A stretch of 64,000 nucleotides of DNA from positions 67,288-131,287 of the forward strand of contig CAZZJC010000006.1 in assembly GCA_964654285.1 (NCBI GenBank), read 5' to 3'. The DNA comes from an uncultured Candidatus Kuenenia sp. (lineage in GTDB: Bacteria > Planctomycetota > UBA11346). A program made the translations under genes and the position numbers. Positions 7,869-35,884 of this stretch are shown here, piece by piece (position 1 is the first letter of the stretch; each line of letters starts with the position of its first letter). The notes beneath the pieces are model-generated. The model did not search any database. It worked only from the letters and a program-made list of their open reading frames with translations, and was not told the DNA's origin.

Positions 7869-9059
7869 ATGACTGGACCAAAGTTGGAGGTTGCCACACT
7901 CGATCTGACTATCGCCAGATTCCACTCCCTCGATATTTTGAGAGGACTCGCTGCGCTTTGCGTTGTATTTTGGCACTGGCAGCATTTCTTCTATGAAGGT
8001 TCCGCACTCGGCCCATTTATACCGACTGATCAGCCGGGATTCAGATACCTCTCACTTCTGTATGCTCGTGGGTGGTTAGCTGTTGATCTATTTTTCTGCT
8101 TGTCGGGTTTTATATTCTATTGGTTGTATTCTCAGCGAATCGTGGACAGGACGATAACTCCCAGCCGATTCGCTTTATTGCGCCTCTCTCGTTTGTATCC
8201 GTTACATGTCGTCACTTTAGTTCTTGTCTTGATTGGTCAGTGGTGGCTGACTTCTGCAGGATCAAGGCCATTCGTCTACGCCCACAATGACGGATACCAC
8301 TTTTTGCTGAATCTGGCATTCGCCTCAAACTGGGGATTCGAGCGCGGATTTTCCTTCAATGCTCCGATCTGGTCTGTGTCGGTCGAAGTATTGCTGTATG
8401 CCATCTTCTTCTGCGTTTGCCGGTGGCTGCCGATTCGAGGGTTGGCCCTCGTGATCCTAGCGTTGATTGGACTCCTGGTTGTGCAACGGTTCAATCTCTT
8501 CCTCGGGAGAGGTGTTGGGTCGTTCTTTCTTGGTGGTTGCGCATTTCTTGTTTATATTAGAGTGCGAAGGTCGTCCTGTGTGGCAATTTTGACCTGGACT
8601 GTAATTGGAACCACGATGCTTTTTTGGACGATTGCTATCGTCATTGCAGTAAATCCTCAACTGAGCGCTGCCATCTCCTTGCGCGATACAACCTTATTGG
8701 CTAAATTCGATGACGCGTTGCAAGCAATGCTGGCAACTTGGCCTGTCGTTGTGCTGTTTCCTCTGACCATCCTCGCGCTGACCCTGTTCGAGACGCTACG
8801 TGGTTCGTTTGCCCGGCGATTTTCATGGATCGGGAACATTTCCTATTCATCGTATTTACTTCACTTTCCACTGCAATTTATCTTTCATGCAGTCGCTCTC
8901 CGTTGGACAACCGGCAACATGATCTTTTATGAGCCGTGGGTGATGGTATTATTCTTCACAATACTTATTGGACTGAGTATGCTGAGTTTTCATTTTTTCG
9001 AGATGCCGGTCCAGAATTATTTGCGGCGTTTCGAAATGAATTCCGTGGCCAAATGGTAA
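7869..9059 (+). CDS. Acyltransferase family 3 (OafA/YrhL-like) integral membrane O-acyltransferase
   Basis: FHSLDILRGLAALCVVFWHW...LAVDLFFCLSGF...RLYPLHV contains the characteristic acyltransferase-3 motifs and about 10 TM helices. It lies in a segment of lower GC. Confidence 0.8.
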   Translation: MTGPKLEVATLDLTIARFHSLDILRGLAALCVVFWHWQHFFYEGSALGPFIPTDQPGFRYLSLLYARGWLAVDLFFCLSGFIFYWLYSQRIVDRTITPSRFALLRLSRLYPLHVVTLVLVLIGQWWLTSAGSRPFVYAHNDGYHFLLNLAFASNWGFERGFSFNAPIWSVSVEVLLYAIFFCVCRWLPIRGLALVILALIGLLVVQRFNLFLGRGVGSFFLGGCAFLVYIRVRRSSCVAILTWTVIGTTMLFWTIAIVIAVNPQLSAAISLRDTTLLAKFDDALQAMLATWPVVVLFPLTILALTLFETLRGSFARRFSWIGNISYSSYLLHFPLQFIFHAVALRWTTGNMIFYEPWVMVLFFTILIGLSMLSFHFFEMPVQNYLRRFEMNSVAKW

Positions 9060-9188
9060 TCCAACAACGCTTTTACCTAGTGCCACCTGCCTAGATGAAC
9101 CTATCCGACCAATTAGATCGCAGTCTAAACGAATGCGAGGGATTTTCAACTCGTGTCTTTCCTCTGGTGACGTTTCGCTTACGCGATT

Positions 9189-10055
9189 TCAGATGAGCTG
9201 CTCAGGTGGATACGACCTGTAGAGCCATGACGGTTTGCGACCATCACAAGCATGGGTAGCCCTGGCGCGGCAAAATAGGTACTGGCCAAGGTCTTCTCCT
9301 CGATGCGCGACCAACGGAGCGATGGTTTTCAGGTCGTAGAATTCGCCGGCGTGATTGTCATGTACATCCGAAGAAATCAACAAATCAACCGTAAATCCGG
9401 CGTGAGTCAGCAATCGGTGGAGGTCGTGCTTGTTGTATTCACGGTTGTGCCGCCCATGCGGACCGTAATGCGAATAGGGATCGTATATATTCACGCCAGC
9501 AAGCATGCGGGCGACGTTCTCAAGTCGGCACACGTTGGGAGTGCTGAGGATAAGGGTACCCCCGGGCACCAGACTGCGGTGCAGACGAAGCAGGAACTGT
9601 AGTGGGTCGCGTATGAGATGCTCAATCACCTCGCAGCACAGGACGACCTCGAAGTTGGTTGCCCAGGGTGATTCAGCGACCTCCATGTCAAGGTTGGGAT
9701 ACGACATGTCGTAGCGTTCGCCCGTCATGGCATTAACCATCGTTTGCAAACCATTGGCAGGCAATCCCTCGAAATAATTAAGACATTGTACCTGCCAGGA
9801 TGTAAATCGTCGCAGGAGCAGGGTCGTAAAATATGGGTTTGAACCGACCTCAAGCAGACGGCCGCTGCCGGGCGGAACAAGTGACAATGTCAAGAGGAAT
9901 CGACGAAAATCCGTATCTAGGTACGAACGCAACGCTGATGGATCAGCATTGTCGAGCGAAAACCCGGCGAGCCAATCCCTGAGCGCTACTTCGTCCCATC
10001 CCGGTGGGCAGGTGAAGGGCAGCGGTGTAAGGAGCGGAAATAATTTGATCGTCAT
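9189..10055 (-). CDS. Class I SAM-dependent methyltransferase
   Basis: LLEVGSNPYFTTLLL...VVLCCEVIEHLIRDP...LVPGGTLILSTPN shows SAM-methyltransferase motifs I, II and III. The start overlaps the stop of the 1160-aa GT (ATGA). GC is lower here. Confidence 0.75.
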   Translation of the reverse strand: MTIKLFPLLTPLPFTCPPGWDEVALRDWLAGFSLDNADPSALRSYLDTDFRRFLLTLSLVPPGSGRLLEVGSNPYFTTLLLRRFTSWQVQCLNYFEGLPANGLQTMVNAMTGERYDMSYPNLDMEVAESPWATNFEVVLCCEVIEHLIRDPLQFLLRLHRSLVPGGTLILSTPNVCRLENVARMLAGVNIYDPYSHYGPHGRHNREYNKHDLHRLLTHAGFTVDLLISSDVHDNHAGEFYDLKTIAPLVAHRGEDLGQYLFCRARATHACDGRKPSWLYRSYPPEQLI

Positions 10056-13000
10056 GGGTGGTCCTGGGTTGCTTCATATAGCCCGCCTGAAACAAGCAAA
10101 GCCGTGATCTGTTCCGGCGCATGGCGCTGACGCACCCATGCGGCAGCTTGGCCCACCGTTCCCAGGTCAAGAGTGGCCCTGACGGCTGGGGCGAATTCGT
10201 GGGAATCTGCCCAGTCGCGTCCGCCACCGCTGCGTTGGGTGAGGTCGACAGTGACACCACAGCGACGGTTGACTAGAGTCGGGCGGCCAAGCGACCACGC
10301 CTCGAGGATGACCAGAGACAGGCTTTCATTGGGAGAAGGATTGATGAGCAGACCACAACCGGCTATGGCGTCCCACCGACTCGTCTCGTCTACGAAGCCC
10401 AATGCCTTCACGTCAGGATGATCGGGAACCTGCATCGCAGCCCTGCCGATCAAGACCAGGGGAGGAAGACCGGCACCGGCCGCCTGGGCAGCCAAGTAAT
10501 GGTCGAATAGAAGGTCGCACCCTTTGCCTGGGTCGATACGGCCCAGGTAGAGTATGTAACCGCGTTGCAGTCCATGACGGACCAAAAAGCGATCACTGTC
10601 CACGTTGGTAGGCGGTTGGATGGCAGCTGAGACCACAGGCCCATCCACGCTGAGGTCATGGAAACGCATCCGCACGTGCCTGCGTTCCCATTCACTGAGG
10701 TACCAGAACGCCTTGGGCAGGCGGAAAAGACGGTCCCAAAAGCCAAAACGCATGCACCATTCGTCATGAGCGCAGGGTGCCAGGATGGCACGATCAGCAA
10801 CGAGTGGCAGACCAAACCATGTGGTCGCATAGAGGTAGCCCACAAATATCACGGCATCGTATTGGTTTCCGTTGCGACGCAGGTGGTCGTTGAGGGAACT
10901 GCTCACCGGCCCTTGCAAACGCATCCATCGGTCGGCGTCGTCTGGTCCGGCATTCTCAAGTCCAGTTTGTACAAGTTCAGCACTGCACGCATCGAAGGCA
11001 GTGACGTTGCGGGGAATATCGACCTTGAAACGTCGCACCCGGACGCCCTCAACCTCGTCATCGCCAACTTGATAAAAATTCTCCCAGGTCATGTAATCAC
11101 GGGCGCAAGTTGTTAGTACCTCGACTTGGTTTCGTCCCAGACAACTACCCACCAGTCTGGCCCAAGCCAGGGCGAGGGCCTCGGCGCCGCCAGCAACCTC
11201 GCGCCCACAACGGGTGACCACCACAGCAACTTTAGGCGGAAAAGCCGCCTGCAGGGCCGACAACCAGATCGGACGAACAACAGCTGGAAGAAAGTCACGC
11301 AGTCGCTTTCGTTGGCCGATCAGGATCCGGCGGCGGTCTGCGGGTTCCATTGCGGCGGCGATGGCCGTCGCAATGGCGGTATCGTCTGCGTCTGGCGGCA
11401 AGCACACGCCAGCCCCACCCAAAGTCTCGCCCACTGCGGCATGGTTGAGGGCAACTACCGGCACTTCAAAGGCCATGGCTTCGACGAGCGGGACACCAAA
11501 GCCCTCGTGTTCTGACACTGATACGTAGACATCGGCGGCACGATACGCGGCAGCCAATTGAGCCTGGGTGGCCTTGGTAATTATGCGCACCTGTCCTGTC
11601 AGATCCTCGGCCGTGAGGTCGGCGAGAACAAAGCGAGACCAGTCATCACCAGCGTCAAAATGGCCAACTAAAATGAGACTGGCCGGTATTTTATTCGCGC
11701 GTAACCGGCGAAGGATGGCCAACAATCGATCCTGGCGTTTGTTGGGCGCTAAGCGCCCAACAAAAAGAAGGCGCGGCGACGGCAGTAAGAGCAATTCGGA
11801 TTCAAGAGCGTTCTCGGGCGGTTGACACCAGGTCTCGGGCTGAAAAGGGAGTGTCAGGATGTCACCGGCTGGCGGCAGATGGACGGCACGTGCAAACTCG
11901 TCCCGATTGAACACGGAATCGTGAAATCGTATCGGGAATGCCGCTGCCAATGCCGGCAAGGCTTCAATGCCGGCCTGCAGATTACTGGCTGTCTGAGGGT
12001 CATGCGCGAAGAACCGTGGCGGTGTGATATTGTGGTCAAGCAAAGCCTTGGGTCCGCGATATGAGACCGCCCAATCGGTCGCTGGCGAACCTATGCTGTG
12101 ATGGTAAATTATCGGTTCATCGGTAAGCGAAACCGACGGTAGCGGTAAAACTCGATCAGCTAGTGCAGGGTCGAGGTAGCGGGCGATCAGTTTGCTGTCC
12201 ATTCCCCAACTGCGAAACCAACTTTGTACTGCGATGGCCTCGGAACTAATGGCATCACCAGGGCGGCAGGCGGTCAGCACTTGGTGCAAGTGACGCCTGA
12301 TCAACGGGAATCCTGGCGGTCGGCTAAGGGAGTCGACCAGAGTAATAATGCGGTCAATGACCTTGTCCCAACTCGACAACTCGCGTCCAGTAGCTTGACC
12401 GACCTTGCCCCATGCCGCCAGTTTCTCTGCGTCTGCGTCGGCTAGTTCGCCAATGATTCGTTGCCAGTCATTATCCGAATTAGCCATGGGAGCGCCGGCT
12501 ATCGCCGCCGCCTCGGCGGTGGCGTTACACCGCGCATCGACTGCAACCGGCCGGCCTAGATGCCAGGCCTCCATGAGGACCCGTGAGTAGGCTTCGTGGC
12601 GGCTTGGAACTGCAAGGGCTAGGCAATTAGCCAGTAGCCAGTTGCGGGTGCCATTGTCGACTAAACCAAGATCATGGACGCAATTTGGCAGATCGGCATA
12701 GCTGCGCCCATCGCTACCCGGTCCAGCAAAGACAAGGTCGAGCCCGCAACCACCTGCCGCCCGCCAGCGGAGGAAGGCGTCAGTTAGAACATTGCAGCCC
12801 TTGGAGGGATCGCGACGTCCGAGACAAAGCAAAAATCGTCCAAGGCCAGAAGTCGCCGCAGGGGGCGAGGCTGGAATTGCCAACGTCTCGGGTTCGATAC
12901 CAGTGCCAACCATGTGCAGACGACCATGCAAACCGGCCCCGAGAAGCCGGATAGCCAGCGAGGCCTCGCCAGTGCTGATCGCGGCTATAGCAGGTACCGA

Positions 13001-13534
13001 CATCGCAAGACGCGAAACGGCGGCCATGCGCGCATAGCCTTCATCATGAAGGCAAGGCATCAGTATGCCACGCGATCCGGCTAGACGTACCGCATCGAGA
13101 ACTAAACCAAAACCATAGGGCAGACCTATAACTGCAGCGTAGTCTGTCACATGCCTGGCGATGCGCCGTAAAAGGCTTGGGCTATTGATCCCGTGTGCCA
13201 AGAAGGCGTCCTCGACCCCTGGAGGGATCGCTCCGACAGGTGCGTGATCCCACTCGCCGCGAATGAACCGGATGTTGGCATTATCAAAAGCCGTGCTGTC
13301 GCGCTGACTGACCAGAAAGCGGCGCACCAGCACCGGGCCATCCAGACTGAGACCGGGATGCAGGACGTTGTTCGACCAGGGATCTTGGAAACGTGGAACG
13401 CAGGTGGTCAGAATCTCCACCCGGCGTCCACGTTGACTCAAGCGATGGGCCAGGGCACGGGCCAGACTCTCGGCCCCTCCCTGGCAATTGGGGCCATACC
13501 ATGGCACGACGATAGCAATGGGTTGCCCGTTCAT
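10052..13534 (-). CDS. Three-module GT4 (GT-B) glycosyltransferase, 1160 aa, WbdA/WxcA-like polymerising mannosyl/rhamnosyltransferase
   Basis: Module 1 (aa 1-~400) IAIVVPWYGPNCQGGAESLARALAHRLSQRGRRVEILTTC; module 2 (~400-770) ...FVGRLAPNKRQDRLL...EHEGFGVPLVEAMAFEVPVVA; module 3 (~775-1160) KVAVVVTRCGREVAGGAEALALAWARLVG...VEVLTTC...LEAWSLGRPTLV. The modules are paralogous to the ORFs at 19293..21608 and 21605..22777. Confidence 0.85.
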   Translation of the reverse strand: MNGQPIAIVVPWYGPNCQGGAESLARALAHRLSQRGRRVEILTTCVPRFQDPWSNNVLHPGLSLDGPVLVRRFLVSQRDSTAFDNANIRFIRGEWDHAPVGAIPPGVEDAFLAHGINSPSLLRRIARHVTDYAAVIGLPYGFGLVLDAVRLAGSRGILMPCLHDEGYARMAAVSRLAMSVPAIAAISTGEASLAIRLLGAGLHGRLHMVGTGIEPETLAIPASPPAATSGLGRFLLCLGRRDPSKGCNVLTDAFLRWRAAGGCGLDLVFAGPGSDGRSYADLPNCVHDLGLVDNGTRNWLLANCLALAVPSRHEAYSRVLMEAWHLGRPVAVDARCNATAEAAAIAGAPMANSDNDWQRIIGELADADAEKLAAWGKVGQATGRELSSWDKVIDRIITLVDSLSRPPGFPLIRRHLHQVLTACRPGDAISSEAIAVQSWFRSWGMDSKLIARYLDPALADRVLPLPSVSLTDEPIIYHHSIGSPATDWAVSYRGPKALLDHNITPPRFFAHDPQTASNLQAGIEALPALAAAFPIRFHDSVFNRDEFARAVHLPPAGDILTLPFQPETWCQPPENALESELLLLPSPRLLFVGRLAPNKRQDRLLAILRRLRANKIPASLILVGHFDAGDDWSRFVLADLTAEDLTGQVRIITKATQAQLAAAYRAADVYVSVSEHEGFGVPLVEAMAFEVPVVALNHAAVGETLGGAGVCLPPDADDTAIATAIAAAMEPADRRRILIGQRKRLRDFLPAVVRPIWLSALQAAFPPKVAVVVTRCGREVAGGAEALALAWARLVGSCLGRNQVEVLTTCARDYMTWENFYQVGDDEVEGVRVRRFKVDIPRNVTAFDACSAELVQTGLENAGPDDADRWMRLQGPVSSSLNDHLRRNGNQYDAVIFVGYLYATTWFGLPLVADRAILAPCAHDEWCMRFGFWDRLFRLPKAFWYLSEWERRHVRMRFHDLSVDGPVVSAAIQPPTNVDSDRFLVRHGLQRGYILYLGRIDPGKGCDLLFDHYLAAQAAGAGLPPLVLIGRAAMQVPDHPDVKALGFVDETSRWDAIAGCGLLINPSPNESLSLVILEAWSLGRPTLVNRRCGVTVDLTQRSGGGRDWADSHEFAPAVRATLDLGTVGQAAAWVRQRHAPEQITALLVSGGLYEATQDHP

Positions 13535-15345
13535 GACCGTCCCCCCGGCTTGATGCTGATCAGGCCGAGATCCTGAGGACCATGGAGTGCGAGGTTAATC
13601 CTTGCCCGCGCATCCGTATCGCCGATGACAGTAGAGAGCGCCGCGCCGTCTGTATGTAAGTGCAATGGGCCGACCACCGTGAACCCGCCTTCGGCGACCA
13701 GTACTTCAAGAAGGGCGCGCGGCACCGGCCGCAAATGGGTTGGATCGAGCCAAAAAGTGTTGGCCCCCACCTGCAGGTTGGATGAATCTGGCGTCTCGAT
13801 CATCAACAGACCGCCCGGGGCCAGAGCGCGGTAGGAGGCCCGAATGAGACGCCAGATTCGATCAATCGGTAGATGCTCGACGACATGGAAGACAGAAACA
13901 ACGGCTAAGTTATCCTCAGGTTGAGACTCCAGCCAAGCGCAACCTTCATTAAGTTCAGCCCGCTGTCCCTTGATTCGGAGCGCTTCGACGAACTCTTTAT
14001 TAAGATCAATGCCGATAGGATCGCAATCTTCGGCAATCAACTCGAGCCATTCTCCACGACCACAACCGATATCAGCAACGGTGCGCAGTCCTGTGCGCGA
14101 CACAGCAGCCACAAGGTGCGGCCTATAGACTGCAACACGGTTGTGTATATCCACCATGGAACCGCGCAAACGCGCCTCGATTGCTGCGTAGACTCGGTCT
14201 AACTGCGCCTGCGTCGCATCAGAGGAGGAGAGGGGGGCCTGGGCGAGTGCGATCCGGTCGACCACAGAGGTCATTGCTGCAAGACGATGTTCGAGAGTCT
14301 GGCTTTGTAGGAGTAGGCCGGCTTCTGCCTCAACCTGATGCGCAACGCCCGCCTCCAAGTCGCCCAATTTTCCCACCTGGATTTGTAACGAGATTTCGAG
14401 AGCCTCCTGGCGTTCACCCATGGCCCGGATCTTGGCCTCGCATGGGGCGATGCGGTGTTGCGCGTCGACCACTTGCGCAAGCGCATGTGTCGTGCGCCGG
14501 GATTCCTGCTCTTGACGCTCGACGATGGTCTGAATATGCGCCTCAGTAGAACGAACGCGCTTGTCCGTGACGTCTGTCCGGGTCTCAACACCGGTCAACC
14601 TCGCGGATTGCGTGGCAAGGGATTGTTCACAGGCTTTCAGACGGGATCCAAGTTCCATTACCGATTCGGAGCCAACGTGGATGGCGTCCTCAATGGCCCC
14701 GATCTGATCGAGAATCGAGAGGATGGCCAAGTGGCGTTCGTGGTTGAGTTGGAGCACCAGATCGCGCAATGCCGTCGCTTTTGATTCCAGATTGGCGTCT
14801 ATTCGCTGAGTCTCGACAAACCGCTGATGGTTGAAATCAAGCATTTGCGCCGACAGCGCCGCGACCGATTGGTGGCGTTCGTGATTCAGAGTCAGCGCCA
14901 AGGAGCGCGTATGGGATAATTCGATCAACATATTGCGCATCTCGAGAACCTGACTCTCGATTCTTTCGCGGGCCTCAATCTCCATCCGTAATCGGCAACC
15001 GAGGGCATCACGATGGCGGTCCAGGAGTGAGAATGGAAGCAAGAGGCGTGCCAATCCAAGCAGTCGGCCGAGAATCGGGATGCGGGAAATGCGTTGACGC
15101 CAACGAAACCGGCTTAACCCCGGGAATGGTGCTGTAGCTGATCTGGACTTTCCTTCCATTGATTCAGCCAAGGCAAGGACAATTTCTAGCTTTGATAAAC
15201 GCCCGTCAGTCAAGGCGGACAGATGTAAGTTCATACCCGACGAATCGGGCCCTCTACCAAGAATCGAATGATATGCGGCAAGCAGGAACTCAGGTCCATC
15301 CAACGCCAGTAGAGCATCCATATCCACCGGATTCGGATAATTCAT
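13531..15345 (-). CDS. WbdD-like chain terminator/ruler candidate: N-terminal DUF4214, central coiled coil, C-terminal class I SAM methyltransferase
   Basis: N-terminal FLLAAYHSILGRGPDSSGMNLHLSALTDG...LALAES resembles DUF4214. About 250 aa follow with heptad-like repeats (LTLNHERHQSV..., LVLQLNHERHLAIL...). The C-terminus has VADIGCGRGEWLELI...VFHVVEHLP...LAPGGLLMIETPD, the methyltransferase motifs. The gene is ATGA-coupled to both neighbours. Confidence 0.7.
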   Translation of the reverse strand: MNYPNPVDMDALLALDGPEFLLAAYHSILGRGPDSSGMNLHLSALTDGRLSKLEIVLALAESMEGKSRSATAPFPGLSRFRWRQRISRIPILGRLLGLARLLLPFSLLDRHRDALGCRLRMEIEARERIESQVLEMRNMLIELSHTRSLALTLNHERHQSVAALSAQMLDFNHQRFVETQRIDANLESKATALRDLVLQLNHERHLAILSILDQIGAIEDAIHVGSESVMELGSRLKACEQSLATQSARLTGVETRTDVTDKRVRSTEAHIQTIVERQEQESRRTTHALAQVVDAQHRIAPCEAKIRAMGERQEALEISLQIQVGKLGDLEAGVAHQVEAEAGLLLQSQTLEHRLAAMTSVVDRIALAQAPLSSSDATQAQLDRVYAAIEARLRGSMVDIHNRVAVYRPHLVAAVSRTGLRTVADIGCGRGEWLELIAEDCDPIGIDLNKEFVEALRIKGQRAELNEGCAWLESQPEDNLAVVSVFHVVEHLPIDRIWRLIRASYRALAPGGLLMIETPDSSNLQVGANTFWLDPTHLRPVPRALLEVLVAEGGFTVVGPLHLHTDGAALSTVIGDTDARARINLALHGPQDLGLISIKPGGRS

Positions 15346-16583
15346 ACCGGCACCAGCGCCTTTTTATCCGTGGCTTCCGACAAGGTGGCTCGTAATCGGG
15401 TGTGACCTATAAACATTGGCCCAATGATGCCTTTCACTGTGAAGCTCGTAAGGTTGTCATGCCAATGGTAGCAGTCCTTAAGATGATGGTCCTGACTGTG
15501 GATGGCTACAGTGAGCGAATATTTTCCCGGGGCAATATCCATGTCCATGGTGAATCGGAAACAATAACGCTTACCGGGAACAACCTCGGGACGATGACCG
15601 AGATGCCAGGAATTGGTACCGAAGACATCCTGGCCGAAACGGTCGGTGATCTTGATCCCGATGGTCGCCTGGGGAATGGGGTGCTCGCAGTCGATCTCGA
15701 TCTCGATGGTGGTCGACTCTCCACTCTGGACCACATCGCCATGCGAGATCGAACCCAGGATGCGGGCGGCGACGATCCGGGCGGCATAGGTCCCGTAGGA
15801 TTGCTCGGCTTGCCTGGCTAAGGTGGAGATCTTCTGCGCCTGGATCCGATCCTCGCTATCTCCCATCTTGGCGAGAAGGAAATTGTAGGCGTTGGTCACC
15901 GGCTCAGGCAGTCCATCTTCGATCACCCGACCGCGATGGAGGAGGATCGCCCGATCGGTCAGGAGTTTGATCGAGTTCATGTCGTGGGAGACGAGGATCA
16001 GACTGCCGCCCTTGGCCTTGAAGGCGCGGATCCGTTCCAGGCATTTGGCGCCGAAGTGGGCGTCGCCCACCGACAGGGCCTCGTCGACGATGAAGCAGAC
16101 CGGTTCACTGTGGATGGCTATGGAGAATCCCAACCGCATCAACATGCCGCTGGAATAGGTCTTGACTGGTTCGTGGATGAAATCGCCGAGTTCGGTGAAG
16201 TCGATGATGGCCTGACGTTTGCTGGCGATTTCTGGTGGCGTCATGCCAAGAATGAGACCGCTGAGATGGATGTTTTCGATCCCGGAGAGTTGATTATTGA
16301 AACCGGCGCCGATCGCGAGCAGTCCGATCCGGCCGGCGCCATCGACGGAGATCCGGCCCTGGTCCGGGAGAAGCATGCCGGCCAGAATCCTGAGCAGGGT
16401 GCTCTTGCCGGCACCATTAGGGCCGATCACGCCGAGAGATTCACCCGGTTGCAAGGTGAAGGAGATGTCGTCCAGTGCCTGGAAATCCTTGTGATAGGGC
16501 CGCCGAAAGAGGATCTCCTTGAGCCGGTCCGCAGGATTGCGATACAGGCGAAACCGCTTGCTGATGTGGTCGACCGAAATCAT
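15342..16583 (-). CDS. wzt: O-antigen/teichoic-acid export ABC transporter ATP-binding protein (Wzt/TagH family) with a C-terminal glycan-binding domain
   Basis: [20 protein letters not shown] is the Walker A; [14 protein letters not shown] is the ABC signature; [11 protein letters not shown] is the Walker B. An extra C-terminal domain of about 160 aa is typical of Wzt. Confidence 0.9.
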
Positions 16584-22777: not shown

Positions 22778-23819
22778 TCACGGGGTCGCGGCCGCAGTAC
22801 CATCAGCCCAGACCCGCAGGCCCTGTCGAGCCAGATACAATGGGATGACCGTGAATCCGGCCTGGGTAAGGTCGCGCTGGAGGATCCGCTTGGCCTCGGA
22901 TCGATGCCTGCAGAGCAGGGTCACGGAACCGCCGTCACCACCAGCACCATTGACCTTGCATCCAAGCACGCCATGCGCCTGGGCGATGGTGATCACACGT
23001 TCGAAATCGGTGCCAACCAAGGCAGGATGCAAGGCGCGTTGGGCCTCGGTGTTCTCGTTCCACACTGTACCCAGGCCTGACCAATCTCCACGCATCAGTG
23101 CGTCTTTAGCCCGCAGGGCCAGACTGCGGAAACGTTCGAGGCGGACATCGGCATGAGCTTCAGGTCCGAGGTGCCGGATGACGTCCTGATGCACGGCAGA
23201 CGATTGGTGCGGTTTTCCTATGTAGACCAGCACCATGCGCCGTTCGAGTTCCCACCAGAGAGGGTTGGAAAGTTGGATCGGAGACACCGACGCATCGGGG
23301 AAACGGCTCATCTCGATCAGGTTGACTCCACCGTAGGCGGCACAGAGTTGATCCTGGATGCCGCTTTGAAGGGACAGGTCTTCCGTTTCGATGCGATGCG
23401 CCAACCGCGCGATCTCGTAGGGAGTGAGCGTTCCGGCAGAAAGCCGGTCGAGAGCGGCGATGATCGCCACCGAGACCGAGGCCGAGGTGCCGGTCGAGGC
23501 CCCTGGCGGGACCTCGCAAAAGATGCTGACATCGATGGAGGTGCGTTCCGGGATCTGCAGCCGGCGCAGGGCGCATTCCAGGAGCGGCAGCTTGTCGTAG
23601 GCCCGGTCGAGCTCTTCCATGGTGAAGTGCAGGCCGAAGTTCTCGGCATGGACGGCAACCCGGGGCTGGTCAGGACGTCGTTCCCGGGTGGTAATCTGCA
23701 CCTCGACGTAGGGATAGACCGCAATGTTGCACACCCGGCCGTGACCGGCGAACCAGGTATCGGTCCAGCCTCCTACATCGGCGACGCGGATCGGGGCGAC
23801 AGCGGTGATGGTGGTCATG
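22778..23819 (-). CDS. GHMP-family sugar kinase (HddA-like), copy 1
   Basis: MTTITAVAPIRVADVGGWTDTWF...CEVPPGASTGTSASVSVAIIAAL (GHMP motif II)...KVNGAGGDGGSVTLL (motif III). The second half of the gene has lower GC3. Confidence 0.8.
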
Positions 23820-23963
23820 CGGATCGGTTTCCTTGTTTGGGCGCGCAGCCTGCCGGCAATGGGCCGGTTCGTAAAGAGGCTGTCGGTCAAGGCGGAACTA
23901 CTAGGAAAGCGGCACCCAGGATGAGCCCCTGGCATCGATGTCTGCTGTGCGAAGATCACGGGC

Positions 23964-25361
23964 ATGAACCGTGCGCAGCAATCGGGGATTCTCTGGTGCG
24001 ATATCGGGGATCTCCTCGACTATTTCGCTCTTTATTCTCGTCCATCTGGAATTCAACGGGTAGTGGTAGAGGTTCTGCGGATGGCGCGACTGCGGTGCCT
24101 GCCCGAAGTGCGTTTGTGCCGGATCACCCCGGGTGGACGGCTGCTGCACCTGGACTGGAGTTGGCTTGATCAGGTGTCCAAACCCCCGACACCGCCGGTA
24201 GTAGCCGCCCCAGGCAAACCTCATCTCATTTCGGTGAAATTGGCCACCCACCTGCGCCAATGTGCGAAAAACGCTGTGCATTTGACATTCGCGTGTTTCC
24301 CGGGCGACAGCGGTGATCGATTCCGTCGATGGATCCGCCCCTTGCGCATTCCGCCAGCCCGACGGAAATGGCATGCGTCACTGGCGGCCGCAGGTGTTCC
24401 CTCGCTGCCGTCCGCTAGCGATCTGGTGGTGACCCTTGGTGCCCCCTGGATCCGACCTGGCTGCGAAAAGGATATGGAGCAGGTCCTGGCGCAAAGTGGG
24501 GCACGTTACGCGGTGCTCGTCTACGACTTGATTCCGCTCACCCATCCGCATCTGTTTCCGGATGAGCCGAACCCGTTCATGCCCTGGTTGGATTGGGCCC
24601 TCAAGCGGGCCTGTCTGGTGCAGACGATATCCCATTATTCTGCCCGGACGATTGCAGCCTACCGGGAAAATCGTGGCTTTCCCCTGGTCCCTACCGAGGT
24701 CATCCGCCTCGGCGATCCCCTGCAGGCATCGACGCGTGCCCCCAATCCGCTGCCCCCTCATATCAGGTTCATCCTCTGCGTTGGCACCATCGAAGCCCGC
24801 AAGAACCATCGCTTGCTGCTGGATACCTGGTTGATCCTGCGGGAGCGATTGGGGGAAAGATGCCCGCATCTGGTCTGGGCCGGACGCAAGGGCTGGTTGG
24901 TGGACGACCTGTTCACCCAACTCCGCGCCGCCCGCTGGCTCGAGGGACGCATCATCCATCTTCCCCAGGCCAGTGACGCCGAGTTGGAAACCCTGTACCG
25001 GGATTCGCTGTTCACTGTCTATCCCAGCCTGGCGGAAGGATGGGGCTTGCCGGTCGCTGAAAGTTTGTCCCGGGGCAAGGTGTGTATTGCCTCCAATAGC
25101 ACGTCGATCCCGGAAATCGCAGGCGACTTGCCTTACTTCATTGATCCCTTCGATCCACGTTCTTTGGCCGAACTAATCTGTCGTCTCCTCGACCAACCAG
25201 CCGAACTTGCTGCCCGGGAAGTCCGTATCCGGGAAACGTGGCGGGCACAACCCTGGTCGGTCTGTGCGGATCAGGTGTTGCGAGGTCTGGAAGAAACATT
25301 GGTCCTGAACGAATCCTGCCGATCACAAAGCACTGGTCCGAGCTGGTTGGGTCAGTCTTGA
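23964..25361 (+). CDS. GT4 family glycosyltransferase
   Basis: ...ILCVGTIEARKNHRLLLDTW...YPSLAEGWGLPVAESLSRGKVCIASNSTSIPEIAGD carries the GT4 EX7E motif region. Confidence 0.8.
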   Translation: MNRAQQSGILWCDIGDLLDYFALYSRPSGIQRVVVEVLRMARLRCLPEVRLCRITPGGRLLHLDWSWLDQVSKPPTPPVVAAPGKPHLISVKLATHLRQCAKNAVHLTFACFPGDSGDRFRRWIRPLRIPPARRKWHASLAAAGVPSLPSASDLVVTLGAPWIRPGCEKDMEQVLAQSGARYAVLVYDLIPLTHPHLFPDEPNPFMPWLDWALKRACLVQTISHYSARTIAAYRENRGFPLVPTEVIRLGDPLQASTRAPNPLPPHIRFILCVGTIEARKNHRLLLDTWLILRERLGERCPHLVWAGRKGWLVDDLFTQLRAARWLEGRIIHLPQASDAELETLYRDSLFTVYPSLAEGWGLPVAESLSRGKVCIASNSTSIPEIAGDLPYFIDPFDPRSLAELICRLLDQPAELAAREVRIRETWRAQPWSVCADQVLRGLEETLVLNESCRSQSTGPSWLGQS

Positions 25362-27961: not shown

Positions 27962-28525
27962 ATGGCGACGCCCACGGTGACGACTTCCGGTGTGATGCTG
28001 GCTTGGCCCGACGGGTTTGCGGCGGCGTTGCCGCGCAGCGGGTGGGTGGTGGCGCATGCCAAGCCGCGCACCGAGAAGAAACTCGCCGAGGATCTGCTGC
28101 GCCTGGGGATCGCCGGGTGCCTGTTCCTGGAACGCCGCATCAAGCGTTATCCCGGCAAAGGGGTGCAGGAGAGCCAGGTGCCGCTGCTGGGCGGGTACCT
28201 GTTCGTGCACCTGGGCGAGGGCCGGGATCCCGAGCCGGTCTACCGCACCGAACGCGTGGTGCGGCTGATCCGGGTGCCGGATCCGGGCCGGCTGGCGGAT
28301 GATCTGGCGGCCCTGCAGCGGCTGATCGAGGGCGCGCAACGGCCGCTGGTGGTGCGGCCGGAACTGATGCCTGGCCAGGTCGTGACGATCGCCAGCGGCG
28401 TCTTTTCCGGCTGCCGGGGCGTGATCGTGCGGCGCGAAGGGGCGGCCGAGCTGGTGGTGAACATCGAGGCGCTCGGGCATTCGGTGGCGGTGCGGATGGG
28501 GGCCGACCTGGTCGGCACGGAATAG
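27962..28525 (+). CDS. NusG-family paralog (RfaH/UpxY/TaA-like transcription antiterminator)
   Basis: WVVAHAKPRTEKKLAEDLLRLGIAGCLFLERRIKRYPGKG...LLGGYLFVHL is an NGN domain. The C-terminal KOW domain is GQVVTIASGVFSGCRGVIVRREGAAELVVNIEALGHSVAVRM. An alternative start is at 27995. Confidence 0.75.
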   Translation: MATPTVTTSGVMLAWPDGFAAALPRSGWVVAHAKPRTEKKLAEDLLRLGIAGCLFLERRIKRYPGKGVQESQVPLLGGYLFVHLGEGRDPEPVYRTERVVRLIRVPDPGRLADDLAALQRLIEGAQRPLVVRPELMPGQVVTIASGVFSGCRGVIVRREGAAELVVNIEALGHSVAVRMGADLVGTE

Positions 28526-28579: not shown

Positions 28580-29614
28580 TCAGCCCGCGGCGTTGCCGTC
28601 AGTCCAGACGCGCAGGCCCTGGCGGGCAAGGTAGAGCGGGATGACGGTGAAGCCGGCCTGGACGAGGTCGCGCAGCAGGGCGCGCTTGGCGTCGGAACGC
28701 GGGCCGCACAGCAGGGTGACGGAACCGCCGTCGCCGCCGGCGCCGTTGACCTTGCAGCCCAGGATGCTGTGGGCGGTGGCGATCGCGATGACCTTCTCGA
28801 AATCGGGGCCGACCAGGGCGGGATGCAGGGCGCGCTGGGCCTCGGTGTTCTCGTTCCAGACCCGGCCCAGTCCGGCCCAGTCGCCGCGCAGCAGGGTGTC
28901 CTTGGCGCGCAGGGCGAGGCTGCGGATACGTTCCAGGCGCGGATCCGCGTGCGCATCGGGGCCGAGGTGGCGGATGACCTCCTGGTGCACGGCCGATGAC
29001 TGGTGCGGCCGGCCGATATAGACCAGCGCCATGCGCCGTTCGAGTTCCCACCACAGGGCATTGGGCAGGTGGAGCGGCGACACCGACGCGTCCGGGAAGC
29101 GGGTCATCTCGATCAGGTTGACGCCGCCGTACGCGGCGCAGAGCTGGTCCTGGATGCCGCTCTGCAGGGAAAGATCCTCGGCCTCGATGCGGTGCGCCAG
29201 GCGGGCGATCTCGTAGGCGGTGAGGGTGCCCCCGGACAGGCGGTCGAGCGCGGCGATGATCGCGACCGATACCGAGGCCGAGGTGCCGGTGGACGCGCCC
29301 GGCGGCACCTCGCAGAAGAGGCTGACATCGATCGAGATGCGCTCCGGGACCTGGAGCCGGCGCAGGGCGCATTCCAGCAGCGGCAGCTTGTCGTAGGCGC
29401 GGTCGAGCTCCTCCATCGAGAAGCGCAGGCCGAAGTTCTCGGCGTGCACCGCGACCCGGGGCTGGTCGGGGCGGCGTTCGCGCGTGGTGATCTGGACTTC
29501 GACGTAGGGATAGACCGCGATGTTGCAGACCCGGCCATGACCGGCGAACCAGGTGTCGGTCCAGCCGCCGACGTCGGCGACGCGGATCGGGGCGACGGCG
29601 GTGATGGTGGTCAT
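28580..29614 (-). CDS. GHMP-family sugar kinase (HddA-like), copy 2 (about 89% aa identity to copy 1)
   Basis: MTTITAVAPIRVADVGGWTDTWF...CEVPPGASTGTSASVSVAIIAAL...KVNGAGGDGGSVTLL. GC is high throughout. It is embedded in the listed 487-aa ORF 28580..30043, whose N-terminal extension is spurious. Confidence 0.8.
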   Translation of the reverse strand: MTTITAVAPIRVADVGGWTDTWFAGHGRVCNIAVYPYVEVQITTRERRPDQPRVAVHAENFGLRFSMEELDRAYDKLPLLECALRRLQVPERISIDVSLFCEVPPGASTGTSASVSVAIIAALDRLSGGTLTAYEIARLAHRIEAEDLSLQSGIQDQLCAAYGGVNLIEMTRFPDASVSPLHLPNALWWELERRMALVYIGRPHQSSAVHQEVIRHLGPDAHADPRLERIRSLALRAKDTLLRGDWAGLGRVWNENTEAQRALHPALVGPDFEKVIAIATAHSILGCKVNGAGGDGGSVTLLCGPRSDAKRALLRDLVQAGFTVIPLYLARQGLRVWTDGNAAG

Positions 29615-29808
29615 GGGCGGTTTTCCTGGGGAAGGATCGAGCCTGCCGCCCGGCGGCGGTGAGGGAAGATGGCGTGCCAGGTCGCAGGCGCCGGGTACGC
29701 GCGATGGCGGCGATGCCGGAAACGCATCCGCCCCGGCCGCAACCGCGCCGGATCGCCCACCCGCTGCGTCGGGCGGTTGAGTCCCCCGGCGGGGGGCGAC
29801 ACTCGCCG

Positions 29809-30924
29809 ATGTCCATGTCCACGACCGCTGTCTCTCCATCGGCCGGATTGGCCACCGATCGCGCCACGCTCGCCGCCTGGCTGGCGTGCGAGGACGACGT
29901 CCGGCTGGAGGACCTCTGGGCGGCGGCCGATGCGGTGCGGCGCGAGCATGTCGGCGATGACGTCCACCTGCGCGGGCTGATCGAGATCTCGAACCACTGC
30001 GTGCGGCAGTGCGCGTACTGCGGCCTGGCGGGCAGTCGCGCACCGGAACCGGCCGGACCGCTGCCGCGTTATCGCATGACGCACGACGAGATCCTCGCCT
30101 GCGCGCACCAGGCGCGCGGGTACGGCTACGGCACGGTGGTGCTGCAAGGCGGCGAGGACTACGGCCTTACCGCCGACTGGGTCGCGGCGGTGGTGCGGGC
30201 GATCAAGGCCGAGACCGGGTTGTCGGTGACGCTCAGCCTGGGCGAGCGGCGCGAGGACGAATTGCAGGCCTGGCGCGCGGCCGGGGCGGATCGCTACCTG
30301 CTGCGCTTCGAGACCGCGAACCGGGACCTCTACCGCCGCATCCATCCGGATCTCGGCCGCGAGGTGTCCGACCGGCTGGCGCTGCTGCAGCGGTTGCGCG
30401 CGATCGGCTACGAGATCGGCACCGGCATCATGGCCGGCATCCCGGGGCAGACGTTCGCGGATCTGCTCGACGACCTGGAGACCTTCCGCCGGTTGGATCC
30501 CGACATGATCGGCATCGGGCCGTACCTGCCGCATCCGCAGACCCCGCTCGGCCGCGAGGCGATCGGCATCTTCGCCGACACGCCGGGGCAGGTGCCCTCC
30601 AGCGAACGGATGACCTGCATCCTGGTGGCGCTGACGCGGCTGGTCTGCCCCGAGGCGAACCTGCCCGCGACGACCGCGCTGGCGACGATCAACAAGCGCG
30701 ATGGGCGCGAGAACGGCCTGCGCCGGGGGGCGAACATCCTGATGCCGAACCTGACCCCGGTGCGCTATCGCGCCCTCTACGAGATCTATCCCGCCAAGGC
30801 CTGCGTCGACGAGACCGCGGAGCAGTGCCACGGCTGCCTGGACGGCCGCATCCGCGCGCTCGGCCGGGTGCCGGGGCGCGGGCCGGGCAGCCGGCGGCGG
30901 TCGCTGGCCGGGGGAGGCGCATGA
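29809..30924 (+). CDS. hydE: [FeFe]-hydrogenase maturase HydE (radical SAM, BioB-like)
   Basis: LRGLIEISNHCVRQCAYCGL is the CX3CX2C radical-SAM motif in a HydE-type context. VLQGGEDYGL and GANILMPNLTPVRYRALYEIYP are HydE-like C-terminal blocks. The start is placed at M51 of the listed ORF. The stop overlaps the hydG start (ATGA). Confidence 0.75.
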   Translation: MSMSTTAVSPSAGLATDRATLAAWLACEDDVRLEDLWAAADAVRREHVGDDVHLRGLIEISNHCVRQCAYCGLAGSRAPEPAGPLPRYRMTHDEILACAHQARGYGYGTVVLQGGEDYGLTADWVAAVVRAIKAETGLSVTLSLGERREDELQAWRAAGADRYLLRFETANRDLYRRIHPDLGREVSDRLALLQRLRAIGYEIGTGIMAGIPGQTFADLLDDLETFRRLDPDMIGIGPYLPHPQTPLGREAIGIFADTPGQVPSSERMTCILVALTRLVCPEANLPATTALATINKRDGRENGLRRGANILMPNLTPVRYRALYEIYPAKACVDETAEQCHGCLDGRIRALGRVPGRGPGSRRRSLAGGGA

Positions 30925-32366
30925 CCTCTGCCGCGATCGGCACCGACTTCATCGACGATGCGTATCTCGAAGGCCTGCTCGCTGAGACCCCGGCGGATCC
31001 CGGGCACGTGCGCGAGATCATCGCGAAAAGCCTGGCGAAGCAGGCGCTGACGGTCGAGGAGACCGCCGTGCTGCTGACCATCCGCGACCCCGCCCTCAAG
31101 GCCGAGATCCAGGAAGGGTCGCGCCGGCTGAAGCGCCAGGTCTACGGCAACCGCATCGTGCTCTTCGCGCCGCTCTACGTCGGCAATCTGTGCGTGAACG
31201 ATTGCACCTACTGCGGCTTCAAGCGCTCGAACCACGACGCGGTGCGCACCACGCTCGACCGCGACGCCCTGGTCAGCCAGGTGAAGGCCCTGGAGGACGC
31301 CGGGCACAAGCGCCTGATCCTGGTCTTCGGCGAGCATCCGCGCTACGACGCCGCATTCATCGCCGACAGCGTGCGCACGGTGTACGGGGTCACCAGCGGC
31401 GCGACCGGCGAGATCCGCCGGGTGAACGTCAACGCAGCGCCGTTCGACATCGACGGCTTCCGCACCGTGAAGGCGGCCGGCATCGGCACCTGGCAGGTCT
31501 TCCAGGAGACCTACCACCACGCGACCTACGCCGCGATGCATTCCGCCAGGCAGGACCGGCCGGCGCCCGGTGTGAATTCGGCGCAACGGCCCAAAAGCGA
31601 TTACCTCTGGCGCCTGTCCGCCTTCGACCGCGCGATGCAGGCGGGCATCGACGATGTCGGCCTGGGCGCGCTGTTCGGCCTGTACGACTGGCGCTTCGAG
31701 GTGCTCGGCCTCGTCCGCCATGCCCTGCACCTGCAGGAATGCTTCGGCGTCGGGCCGCACACCATCAGCTTCCCGCGCCTGCAACCGGCCTCGGGGGTCA
31801 CCCTCGACCCGCGCTGGGCGGTCTGCGACGACGACTTCCGCCACCTCGTCGCGGTACTGCGCCTCGCGGTGCCGTACACCGGGCTGATCCTGACCGCACG
31901 CGAACCGGTGGCGATCCGCAATGAACTGATGGAATTCGGGGTGAGCCAGATCGATGGCGGCACCCGCATCGGCCTCGGCGCCTACACCGCCGGCGACGAC
32001 GGGCAGCACCTCGAACGCGAGCAGTTCCGCATCGGCGACAGCCGCAGCCTGGACCAGGTCGTGCAGGAACTCATCGCCCGCCACGAACTGCCGAGCTTCT
32101 GCACCGCCTGCTACCGCCTCGGCCGCACCGGCGAGCATTTCATGGAGTTCGCCATCCCGGGCTTCATCAAGCGCTTCTGCACCCCGAACGCGCTCACCAC
32201 CTTGCAGGAATACCTCGTCGACTACGCCCCGCCGGACACTCGCGCCCAGGGCCAGGCCGTGATCGCGGCGGAACTGGCCCGCATGGAAGACGGCGACCTC
32301 AAGCGCGAACTGGTCGCGCGGCTTGAACGCATCCGCACCACGGCGGCGCGCGACCTGTATTTCTGA
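30921..32366 (+). CDS. hydG: [FeFe]-hydrogenase maturase HydG (radical SAM tyrosine lyase)
   Basis: YVGNLCVNDCTYCGFKRSN is a ThiH/HydG N-terminal radical-SAM motif. The C-terminus carries SFCTACYRLGRTGEHFMEFAIPGFIKRFC, a CX2CX22C motif that distinguishes HydG from ThiH. It is embedded in the listed 785-aa ORF, and the start is taken at MTSAAIGTDF. Confidence 0.8.
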   Translation: MTSAAIGTDFIDDAYLEGLLAETPADPGHVREIIAKSLAKQALTVEETAVLLTIRDPALKAEIQEGSRRLKRQVYGNRIVLFAPLYVGNLCVNDCTYCGFKRSNHDAVRTTLDRDALVSQVKALEDAGHKRLILVFGEHPRYDAAFIADSVRTVYGVTSGATGEIRRVNVNAAPFDIDGFRTVKAAGIGTWQVFQETYHHATYAAMHSARQDRPAPGVNSAQRPKSDYLWRLSAFDRAMQAGIDDVGLGALFGLYDWRFEVLGLVRHALHLQECFGVGPHTISFPRLQPASGVTLDPRWAVCDDDFRHLVAVLRLAVPYTGLILTAREPVAIRNELMEFGVSQIDGGTRIGLGAYTAGDDGQHLEREQFRIGDSRSLDQVVQELIARHELPSFCTACYRLGRTGEHFMEFAIPGFIKRFCTPNALTTLQEYLVDYAPPDTRAQGQAVIAAELARMEDGDLKRELVARLERIRTTAARDLYF

Positions 32367-32613: not shown

Positions 32614-32636
32614 AGTTTGACTTCCTGAGTCAAACT
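32614..32636. promoter_or_regulatory. Perfect 8-bp inverted repeat (agtttgac-N7-gtcaaact), candidate MarR operator
   Basis: agtttgacttcctgagtcaaact lies about 115 bp upstream of the MarR-family gene that starts at 32751. Confidence 0.4.
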
Positions 32637-32750: not shown

Positions 32751-33248
32751 ATGCCCGGGCTGCTGCAATCCGAACTCCGCCTGACGCGGCCGCTGCCCAG
32801 CGCCGAGGTCGAGGGCTACCTCAACCTCATGCGGACGGCCGAACTGCTGCGGCGGCAGGTGACCGAACTGCTGCGGTCCTCCGACCTGACCCCGGCGCAG
32901 TACAACGTCCTGCGCATCCTGGCTGGCGCGGGAGCGCGGGGGTGCTCGTGTGCGACCATGGCCGAACGGATGGTCCACTTCGATCCCGACGTGACCCGGC
33001 TGGTCGACCGCCTGGCGGCGCGCGGCCTGGCGCAGCGCGACCGCGATCCCGGCGATCGCCGCCTGGTCATCACCCGCATCACGGCCGAAGGTTCCGCGCT
33101 GATCGAGCGCCTGGCGCGACCGATCGCCGACCTCCACCGCCGCCAGTTCGCCGCCCTGGGCGGCGAACGCCTGCATATGCTCATCGTCGCGCTGGAAGAC
33201 CTCCGGCGCGATCGTGAATCCCAACCCCAACCCATGGAGAAACCATGA
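32751..33248 (+). CDS. MarR-family transcriptional regulator
   Basis: LTPAQYNVLRILAGAG...MAERMVHFDPDVTRLVDRLAARGLAQRDRDPGDRRLVITRITAEG is a winged-helix MarR core. Confidence 0.8.
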   Translation: MPGLLQSELRLTRPLPSAEVEGYLNLMRTAELLRRQVTELLRSSDLTPAQYNVLRILAGAGARGCSCATMAERMVHFDPDVTRLVDRLAARGLAQRDRDPGDRRLVITRITAEGSALIERLARPIADLHRRQFAALGGERLHMLIVALEDLRRDRESQPQPMEKP

Positions 33249-33832
33249 CCAGCCGCATCCTGTCCGCCCTCGCCCTCACCGGCTTCACCCTTGCCTCGGC
33301 CTCCGCTGCCGACCAGTACACCCTCGACCCGGTGCATACCTTCGCCCTCTTCAAGGTGCAGCACTTCGGCGCCGGCATCTCGGTCGGCCGCTTCGACACC
33401 GCCGGCGGCACCCTGACCTGGGACGCGGCGGATGCGTCGAAGAATGCGATCTCCGTCACCATCCAGGCCGACAGCATCAGCACCGGCAGCGATGAGGCGT
33501 CGAAGAAGCGCGACGGCCACCTGAAGTCGGCCGACTTCCTCAGCGCCAAGGAATTCCCCACCCTGTCGTTCAAGTCGACCGCCTTCACCAAGGTCGATGA
33601 CGCGACCTTCAAGGTCGATGGCGACTTCACCCTGCGCGGCAAGAGCAAGCCGCTGAGCATCACGGTGAAGAAGACCGGCCAGGGCAAGCTGCCCGCCGCG
33701 ATGGGCGGCAAGGACGTGGTCGGCTTCGAGACCGTGTTCACCATCTCGCGCAAGGATTTCGGCATGGAATACGGCGCCGGCGCGGTGGGCGATACGGTGA
33801 CGATCGAGTTCTATACCGAAGCCAATAAGTAA
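33245..33832 (+). CDS. YceI-family periplasmic polyisoprenoid-binding protein
   Basis: A signal peptide is followed by DQYTLDPVHTFALFKVQHFGAGISVGRF...FTLRGKSKPLSITVKK, the YceI family signature. ATGA coupling links it to marR. Confidence 0.85.
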   Translation: MTSRILSALALTGFTLASASAADQYTLDPVHTFALFKVQHFGAGISVGRFDTAGGTLTWDAADASKNAISVTIQADSISTGSDEASKKRDGHLKSADFLSAKEFPTLSFKSTAFTKVDDATFKVDGDFTLRGKSKPLSITVKKTGQGKLPAAMGGKDVVGFETVFTISRKDFGMEYGAGAVGDTVTIEFYTEANK

Positions 33833-35044: not shown

Positions 35045-35122
35045 CGTGCACTGACCTGGGCCGCCCCGGACTGGAAATCGGTGGCTGGGCCGCATCCTGC
35101 GCCGCCCACCCCGGAGGAACCC

Positions 35123-35884
35123 ATGGCCGAGTCTCCCGAAATCCCCGAAGCGAAAGACCCGTTCGGGCGCCGTGTCGCCATCACCATCGCGATCATCGCG
35201 ATCGTCCTCTCCGCGTTCACCGCCGTTGGCGACAACGCCAAGACCGAGGCGCTGGTGCGTACCACCGAGGCGGCCAACCGCTGGGCCTACTTCCAGTCCA
35301 AGAGCATCAAGGAGCACTCCTACGAACTGCAGAAGGAGCTGCTCCAGACCATGGCCCCGGGCACGATCGATGAGGGCAAACGCGTGGAACTGGTGAAGAA
35401 ATACGACAAGAAGATCGCCAAATACAAGGAGGAGAAGACCGACATCGGCTTCGGCCGCAAGGATGAGCACGGCCACTGGAAGGAGATCCAGGACGACCAG
35501 GGCAAGCCGCTCATCAGCGCGACCCAGCTCGAAGGCGAAGCCAAGCATGAACTGGCCGTGAACGACCGGTGTGACAATGCGGTGCTGCTCCTCCAGATCG
35601 CAGTGGTCCTGTGCTCGGTCGCCATTCTCGTGGAATTGCATGCGTTCTGGTACATCGGCATGGGTGTCGCGCTGGTCGGCGCCATCGTCGGGACCACCGC
35701 CCTGTTCATGCCCGAACACCATGAGGAGCACGGCACCGCGGTCAGCGCCCAGCCGCACGCGGCCAAGCCCGCTCAGGGCCCCGGCCACGAGGCGAAAGCG
35801 GCGGAGGGCAAGGCCGGTGATGGCAAGGCCGAATCCGCAGTGCCGAAGGGCGAGGTACCGATCGCCAGGCCGGACGCGCACTGA
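35123..35884 (+). CDS. DUF4337-family membrane protein
   Basis: MAESPEIPEAKDPFGRRVAITIAIIAIVLSAF...ANRWAYFQSKSIKE...ELLQ matches the DUF4337 N-terminal pattern. A second TM pair lies near residues 150-190. Confidence 0.6.
   Translation: MAESPEIPEAKDPFGRRVAITIAIIAIVLSAFTAVGDNAKTEALVRTTEAANRWAYFQSKSIKEHSYELQKELLQTMAPGTIDEGKRVELVKKYDKKIAKYKEEKTDIGFGRKDEHGHWKEIQDDQGKPLISATQLEGEAKHELAVNDRCDNAVLLLQIAVVLCSVAILVELHAFWYIGMGVALVGAIVGTTALFMPEHHEEHGTAVSAQPHAAKPAQGPGHEAKAAEGKAGDGKAESAVPKGEVPIARPDAH

Follow-up and report, generated by a model that had tools for sequence, protein, structure and literature searches.

The maturation of the H-cluster of [FeFe]-hydrogenases is described by a published model (PMC8855341, PMC11736057) in which the N-terminal S-adenosylmethionine (SAM) cluster of HydG would cleave tyrosine and HydG would then build up [Fe(II)(CN)(CO)2(cysteinate)]- at its C-terminal auxiliary cluster, on the "dangler" iron. 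HydE would bind this synthon and activate it for dimerization to the [Fe2S2(CO)4(CN)2] precursor, and HydF, together with ammonia and the glycine-cleavage H-protein, would finish the azadithiolate bridge, with the [2Fe] unit delivered to apo-HydA. An aspA-like lyase, the characteristic companion of hydF, provides ammonium for the bridge (PMC11736057), and in a ProPhylo survey of 1,466 genomes, 189 of 189 HydE matches and 179 of 180 HydG matches came from genomes with HydF (PMC3226654). This analysis concerns a hydE-hydG pair at positions 29809 to 32366 of a stretch of contig CAZZJC010000006.1 (here called the window, i.e., the whole 64-kb stretch of DNA that was analyzed). An earlier note had described the pair as an orphan, had assumed a high-GC proteobacterium, and had asked whether its partners lie elsewhere or whether it has a nonhydrogenase role.

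The closest described systems are the complete hyd clusters of Planctomycetota, in which HydGs with 67 to 70% identity to that of the window are found (GCA_017999985.1, Phycisphaerae [locus L004], and GCA_964461255.1 [locus L007]). As in the window, hydE lies directly upstream of hydG in these clusters, often overlapping it, and the HydE proteins are 54 to 63% identical. The canonical clusters differ from the window in that they also contain, within 10 kb, NuoE/NuoF-like genes with HydA, the sensory HydS, two-component regulators, the aspA-like lyase, and hydF, whereas the 64 kb of the window contains none of these. We consider that the window encodes a functional H-cluster maturase pair, whose two genes form one translationally coupled unit, in a Planctomycetota genome with dispersed hyd genes, and that hydF and hydA (or hydS) are located elsewhere in that genome; the probability of this reading is estimated at roughly 0.8. 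The finding is then most likely a routine one; the genes had been called correctly, and their context had been over-read.

The identities of the two genes and the location of their cysteine motifs, as proposed in the earlier note, are confirmed by equivalog scores, motif scans, and structure alignments. hydG (30921 to 32366, + strand) encodes a radical SAM tyrosine lyase/Fe(CO)2(CN) synthon synthase of 481 amino acids (aa), which scored 450.3 bits against the HydG equivalog model TIGR03955 (curated cutoff, 312.15), and hydE (29809 to 30924, + strand) encodes a radical SAM H-cluster maturase of 371 aa, which scored 311.9 bits against the HydE equivalog model TIGR03956 (curated cutoff, 254.6). 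The E-values of HydE and HydG on these models (5.5e-93 and 6e-135) are far past chance. The start of hydE is uncertain by a few codons, being placed at 29815 by NCBI (369 aa) and at 29704 in the Logan call, and the HydE of the closest database relative, which is 90% identical (the next is ∼75% identical), has 373 aa.

In HydG, the N-terminal radical SAM motif CX3CX2C (CVNDCTYC; 31191 to 31214, + strand) was located by motif scan, and its cysteines are invariant in an alignment of the window protein with 10 other HydGs. The same alignment shows C394, C397, and C420 to be invariant; these residues form the C-terminal auxiliary-cluster motif CX2CX22C (CTAC-x22-C, CTACYRLGRTGEHFMEFAIPGFIKRFC; 32100 to 32180, + strand), which was recovered both by motif scan and by alignment with the TiHydG structure 4WCX. 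That alignment (415 bits) runs end to end, through the final residue, 481. TiHydG His265 is a ligand of the dangler iron (PMC8855341), and its equivalent in the window, His267, corresponds in 4WCX to the first His of the LYHANHL block and is invariant among the aligned relatives. Compared with the known structures (TiHydG 4WCX and ChHydG 4RTB, both TIGR03955), the window HydG has the same length class, the CX3CX2C motif, the BATS domain, and the C-terminal CX2CX22C motif, but it belongs to a distinct planctomycete subclade and carries a unique loop insertion of 12 residues. This insertion (SARQDRPAPGVN; 31542 to 31577, + strand) lies between the conserved AAMH and KSDY blocks and is specific to the window, as it is missing from 10 of 10 other aligned HydGs, including that of the 90% relative, and from TiHydG. 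From its sequence, the window HydG is predicted to make CO and CN- from tyrosine and then Fe(Cys)(CO)2(CN).

HydE has its radical SAM motif CX3CX2C (CVRQCAYC) at 29998 to 30021 (+ strand), as found by six-frame motif scan and translation. The Thermotoga maritima HydE structures 3CIW and 7O1P gave a full-length alignment (290 bits; query residues 23 to 364), which covers the CX7CX2C site at the C terminus. The window protein shares with T. maritima HydE (TIGR03956; 3CIW, 3IIZ, and 7O1P) both the CX3CX2C motif and the C-terminal CX7CX2C second-cluster site and differs in having ∼10 additional residues, which follow the SAM-cluster motif or lie within a single loop.

The proposed translational coupling is also borne out by the sequence of the hydE/hydG junction (30910 to 30924, + strand), in which a Shine-Dalgarno sequence (GGGGGAGG; 30910 to 30917) is followed by an ATGA overlap, with the hydE stop codon TGA (30922 to 30924) overlapping the hydG start codon ATG (30921 to 30923). 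Both the pair and the overlap are retained in two relatives, with 90% and 72% identity. Coupling fits a hand-over in which the product of one enzyme is the substrate of the other. That both act as a unit is underlined by natural HydE-HydG fusions among the relatives: two proteins of 802 to 803 aa (P0014 and P0053) were resolved by BLASTP into HydE (residues 3 to 339) and HydG (residues 342 to 802), and two others in the same size range (P0026 and P0041) are presumed from their length to be fusions.

Both genes are under purifying selection. In comparison with the 90% relative, the ratio of nonsynonymous to synonymous substitution rates (dN/dS) was 0.197 for HydE and 0.175 for HydG, and those of the neighboring NusG, GHMP kinase, YceI, xylulokinase, and RNase D were 0.09 to 0.22; the synonymous rate (dS) of the pair, 0.26 to 0.32, was the same as that of neighboring genes. 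Functional constraint was further assessed at columns with ≥97% conservation among homologues taken from GTDB loci where HydF is present as well (49 HydG and 46 HydE sequences). Of the 166 such columns in HydG, the window protein deviated at 3 (A to S, A to G, and G to A), and of the 96 in HydE, it likewise deviated at 3 (A to S, L to P, and I to L). All of these changes are conservative, and their number falls within the leave-one-out spread of the HydF-linked homologues, whose mean deviations were 1.7 (HydG) and 1.5 (HydE), with maxima of 7 and 11, respectively. The change from DAGT to DGGT in HydG is widespread in low-GC HydGs adjoining HydF and HydA, and the corresponding DNA pattern, for FGVSQIDGGT, seemed clade specific among the fetched loci, yet in JGI metagenomes, the matches listed included many low-GC HydGs, which shows the A-to-G change to be a normal variant. 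The root-to-tip distance was 0.276 for the clade of the window, versus 0.295 ± 0.024 for other, cluster-linked relatives, indicating no rate acceleration. As judged from sequence, the pair gives no sign of altered function.

The earlier note had reported neither hydF nor hydA in the window, and this observation stands. Six-frame scans of the 64 kb for the HydA L1 to L3 motifs and the HydF CxH...HCxxC motif were negative; PF02906, PF18128, and PF18133 were all missing from Pfam scans of ∼45 window open reading frames (ORFs) and from the gene calls on Logan contigs; and tblastn searches of the window with planctomycete HydF, HydA, HydS, and aspA-like lyase gave no match. The pair is therefore not part of a contiguous hyd operon, there being no hydF or hydA in the 29 kb upstream or the 31 kb downstream of it.

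Although relatives with HydG identities of 63 to 70% mostly have complete hyd clusters, a dispersed layout of hyd genes is common among relatives of the window, rather than unusual. The baseline consisted of at least 80 GTDB loci with 62 to 70% HydG identity, and the window's own clade was not among the matches listed. Layout was counted at the 34 listed loci with ≥8 kb on both sides of hydG: HydF was present at 26 of these and HydA or HydS at 25, hydF was missing within 8 to 10 kb at 8, and neither hydF nor hydA/hydS was present at 4, two of which (L026 and L097) had hydE-hydG alone. Locus L034 has the order hydA-hydS-hydE-hydG, with no hydF within 10 kb, but the contig recorded for one HydF (P0158) has the identical size (122,495 bp), which places hydF elsewhere on the contig of L034. 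The mirror image of the stand-alone hydEG of the window is found in GCA_964564785.1 (L016, 10001 to 13240), where a stand-alone hydF precedes a 113-aa ORF and a HydS-like gene, with housekeeping genes (RecO, UDG, and Lon domain) around them. Separation is also frequent in metagenomic data, as 16 of the 22 low-GC hydG genes with ≥3 kb flanks, among the matches listed, lay near neither hydF nor hydA. In T. maritima, hydE and hydG are close to each other and distant from hydF and hydA (TM1269, TM1267, and TM0445). In one planctomycete metagenome-assembled genome (MAG; CAZZFA01), hydA-hydS-hydE-hydG occurs at two separate loci (L019 and L020), whose contigs measure 144,973 and 56,857 bp; the entire cluster is apparently duplicated.

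The host was assumed in the earlier note to be a high-GC proteobacterium, but relatives of both HydG and the flanking xylulokinase place it in the Planctomycetota. Named relatives of HydG are MAGs of Planctomycetota (mostly Phycisphaerae), Thermoanaerobaculia, and Krumholzibacteria, and the best 80 GTDB hydG loci listed are mostly from Planctomycetota. The xylulokinase belongs to a well-populated clade of relatives (68 to 81% identity), of which the named members are Planctomycetota (closest named, 74 to 76%). Proteins identical to those of the window were found in one NCBI assembly and in Logan assemblies of run SRR6262237. The argument that hydrogenase machinery is patchy in high-GC proteobacteria is consequently inapplicable, as [FeFe]-hydrogenase clusters are widespread among the planctomycete relatives of this host. 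Overall, the earlier interpretation is partly supported: "orphan" is an apt description of the pair within the window, but as a genome-wide claim it is overstated; dispersed hyd genes are common in relatives, and the sequences show no sign of functional change.

Monophyly and gene contexts assign the window pair to a small clade of planctomycete sequences whose hydEG stands alone in each context examined. The clade comprises six HydG sequences (P0001 to P0006) with 72 to 100% identity to that of the window, of which MCK6488677.1 is the sole NCBI accession recorded. They were monophyletic in 50 of 50 neighbor-joining bootstraps and sister to the 80 GTDB loci listed. In the 90% relative (L002; ENA contig k141_2699958, ERZ27280257), gene order is as in the window (NusG-GHMP kinase-hydE-hydG-YceI-...-xylulokinase-RNase D), and neither hydF nor hydA lies within ±10 kb. 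In the 72% relative (L009), glycosyltransferase and methyltransferase genes precede hydE-hydG, and in a 74% relative (P0005), hydE-hydG is followed by an aspA-like lyase and then by unrelated sugar-nucleotide genes.

Several observations weigh against a dispersed but complete hyd system. First, neither hydF nor hydA was found in the part of this genome that was covered, 64 kb of a ∼136-kb contig, whereas at the dispersed loci of relatives (L026, L097, L034, and L016), partner genes are known or inferable. Second, a search with a profile built from two planctomycete HydFs gave, among the best 120 matches, a dense plateau at 65 to 71% identity and no sequence assignable to the contigs of the window or of the 90% relative. 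Third, the clade of the window HydG is sister to all 80 listed GTDB loci, rather than nested among them. Fourth, hydF and hydA were seen in no context of the stand-alone clade (the 64-kb window, ±10 kb around the pair of the 90% relative, and partial flanks in the 72% relative and on the P0005 contig), so that lineage-wide loss of the partners is conceivable. Three HydF sequences (P0204, P0154, and P0155) were chosen by source pattern, composition, and distinctness as candidates for the HydF of this genome and were rejected, since they come from other samples. Nevertheless, this genome is considered likely to contain hydF and at least one hydA or hydS at other loci, and if the dispersed reading is right, the locus contributes only two divergent but orthodox HydE/HydG sequences and one further example of dispersed hyd genes.

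The alternative that survives best, although it is unlikely, is a truly orphan pair: in the clade, hydF and hydA would have been lost or would never have been present, and HydE and HydG would supply Fe(CO)2(CN), the [2Fe] unit, or CO/CN- to an unknown nonhydrogenase acceptor. The monophyly of the stand-alone clade, apart from HydF-linked sequences, and the lack of hydF and hydA in the contexts listed above are as expected under this alternative, purifying selection implies that the pair does something, and the pair is repeatedly found beside glycan and APS-kinase loci. Conversely, a switch of partner or product would be expected to alter catalytic or family-conserved positions and to accelerate the substitution rate, and neither is seen. 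The aspA-like lyase is kept beside hydG in one clade member (P0005), HydE and HydG co-occur near perfectly with HydF in sequenced genomes (PMC3226654), dispersed hyd genes are common in relatives, and the shared glycan-locus neighborhood is explained most simply as inherited synteny within one clade. That the clade keeps a selected, stand-alone hydE-hydG without HydF or any H-cluster protein, with an Fe(CO)x(CN) unit or CO/CN- destined for another acceptor, is improbable. If complete genomes of the clade do lack HydF and any H-cluster protein, the pair would be the first example from nature in which the organometallic chemistry of HydG and HydE has a target other than an [FeFe]-hydrogenase.

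Recent horizontal transfer of the pair to the edge of the glycan locus is very unlikely. The pair does lie at the border of a compositionally mixed locus (GC content, 50 to 65%), its clade is distinct from other planctomycete HydGs, and synteny does not extend to a xylulokinase relative with 80% identity, although this last observation is uninformative about when hydEG arrived at its position. However, the pair has a GC content of ∼71 to 72% (∼0.90 at third codon positions of hydE), like the high-GC right flank and unlike the low-GC island, the order NusG-GHMP-hydE-hydG-YceI-FGGY-RNase D is kept in the 90% relative, and the dS of the pair equals that of its neighbors. Any transfer must therefore be old, with function unaffected.

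It is still less probable that the pair is a decaying relic, in which the hydrogenase has been lost and both maturase genes are nonfunctional leftovers. Such decay could account for the lack of partner genes in 64 kb and for the window-specific 12-codon insertion in hydG, but both ORFs are intact, with every motif present; their dN/dS of 0.18 to 0.20 equals that of housekeeping neighbors; the pair and its ATGA overlap are retained in the 90% and 72% relatives; and the number of deviations at conserved columns is in the normal range.

Misassignment of paralogues, with ThiH or another tyrosine lyase taken for HydG and BioB, PylB, or HmdB taken for HydE, can be dismissed despite the radical SAM and BATS core common to all these families (shared by ThiH and the window HydG) and the naming of many close homologues as "2-iminoacetate synthase" by JGI, since the window HydG reaches only 236.9 bits on the ThiH model TIGR02351 (cutoff, 380) and has the C-terminal auxiliary-cluster domain (CX2CX22C) that ThiH lacks, alignment with the ThiH structure 7PD1 is confined to query residues 42 to 390, compared with alignment of TiHydG through 481, and HydE scores fall below the cutoffs for PylB (115 versus 348), BioB (82 versus 225), and HmdB (66 versus 321). 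The possibility of ThiH, which the earlier note had itself named as fatal to its claim, does not therefore hold.

The neighbors of the pair named in the earlier note, a GHMP kinase on one side, MarR and YceI on the other, and the border of a glycan locus, were all recovered by ORF and family scans. The GHMP kinase gene (28580 to 29614, - strand) is the divergent neighbor of hydE and adjoins an UpxY/NusG-like gene (27962 to 28525). The GHMP kinase gene (-) and hydE (+) are separated by a divergent intergenic region, 29615 to 29808 on the ORF map, which is the presumed promoter region; a promoter scan of this region gave 0 sites with the sigma-70 consensus, and no promoter or terminator consensus was found around the hydE-hydG pair. 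No Rfam family reached its gathering score anywhere in the 64-kb window. Downstream of hydG are marR (32751 to 33248) and yceI (33245 to 33832), and the right half of the window contains genes for xylulokinase, RNase D, Ser/Thr kinases, OmpA, PpiC, transporters, a large hybrid kinase, and CheR/B/W.

The glycan locus, which adjoins the hydEG region, spans 1 to 27.8 kb and encodes RmlD, an RmlC fragment, a DprE-like set of short-chain dehydrogenase/reductase, FAD oxidase, and UbiA, as well as GT4 glycosyltransferases, Wzm/Wzt, methyltransferases, and APS kinase. At its left end, a gene for a DUF4143/AAA_14 ATPase (684 to 1892, + strand) lies between the genes for RmlD (1 to 594, - strand) and RmlC (1905 to 2297, - strand); the latter ORF spans only Pfam positions 63 to 166 of 168 and may be truncated or frameshifted. 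The segment from ∼8000 to 16000, with a GC content of 50 to 59%, compared with ∼70% elsewhere, carries genes for an acyltransferase, methyltransferases, and a 1,160-aa GT4 protein and looks horizontally acquired.

The window has two GHMP kinase paralogues ∼5 kb apart with 84 to 89% protein identity, one inside the glycan locus (22778 to 23965, - strand) and the other (28580 to 29614, - strand) directly upstream of hydE and divergent from it, whereas the 90% relative has a single copy within ±10 kb. Their best family match is an HddA-like heptose-7-phosphate kinase, with a score far under the cutoff. The otherwise syntenic 90% relative also differs from the window in lacking both marR and a DUF4337 gene (35081 to 35884). 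Upstream of marR, at a distance of 115 bp, is a perfect inverted repeat, AGTTTGACT-N5-AGTCAAACT (32614 to 32636), which is a plausible, putative MarR operator.

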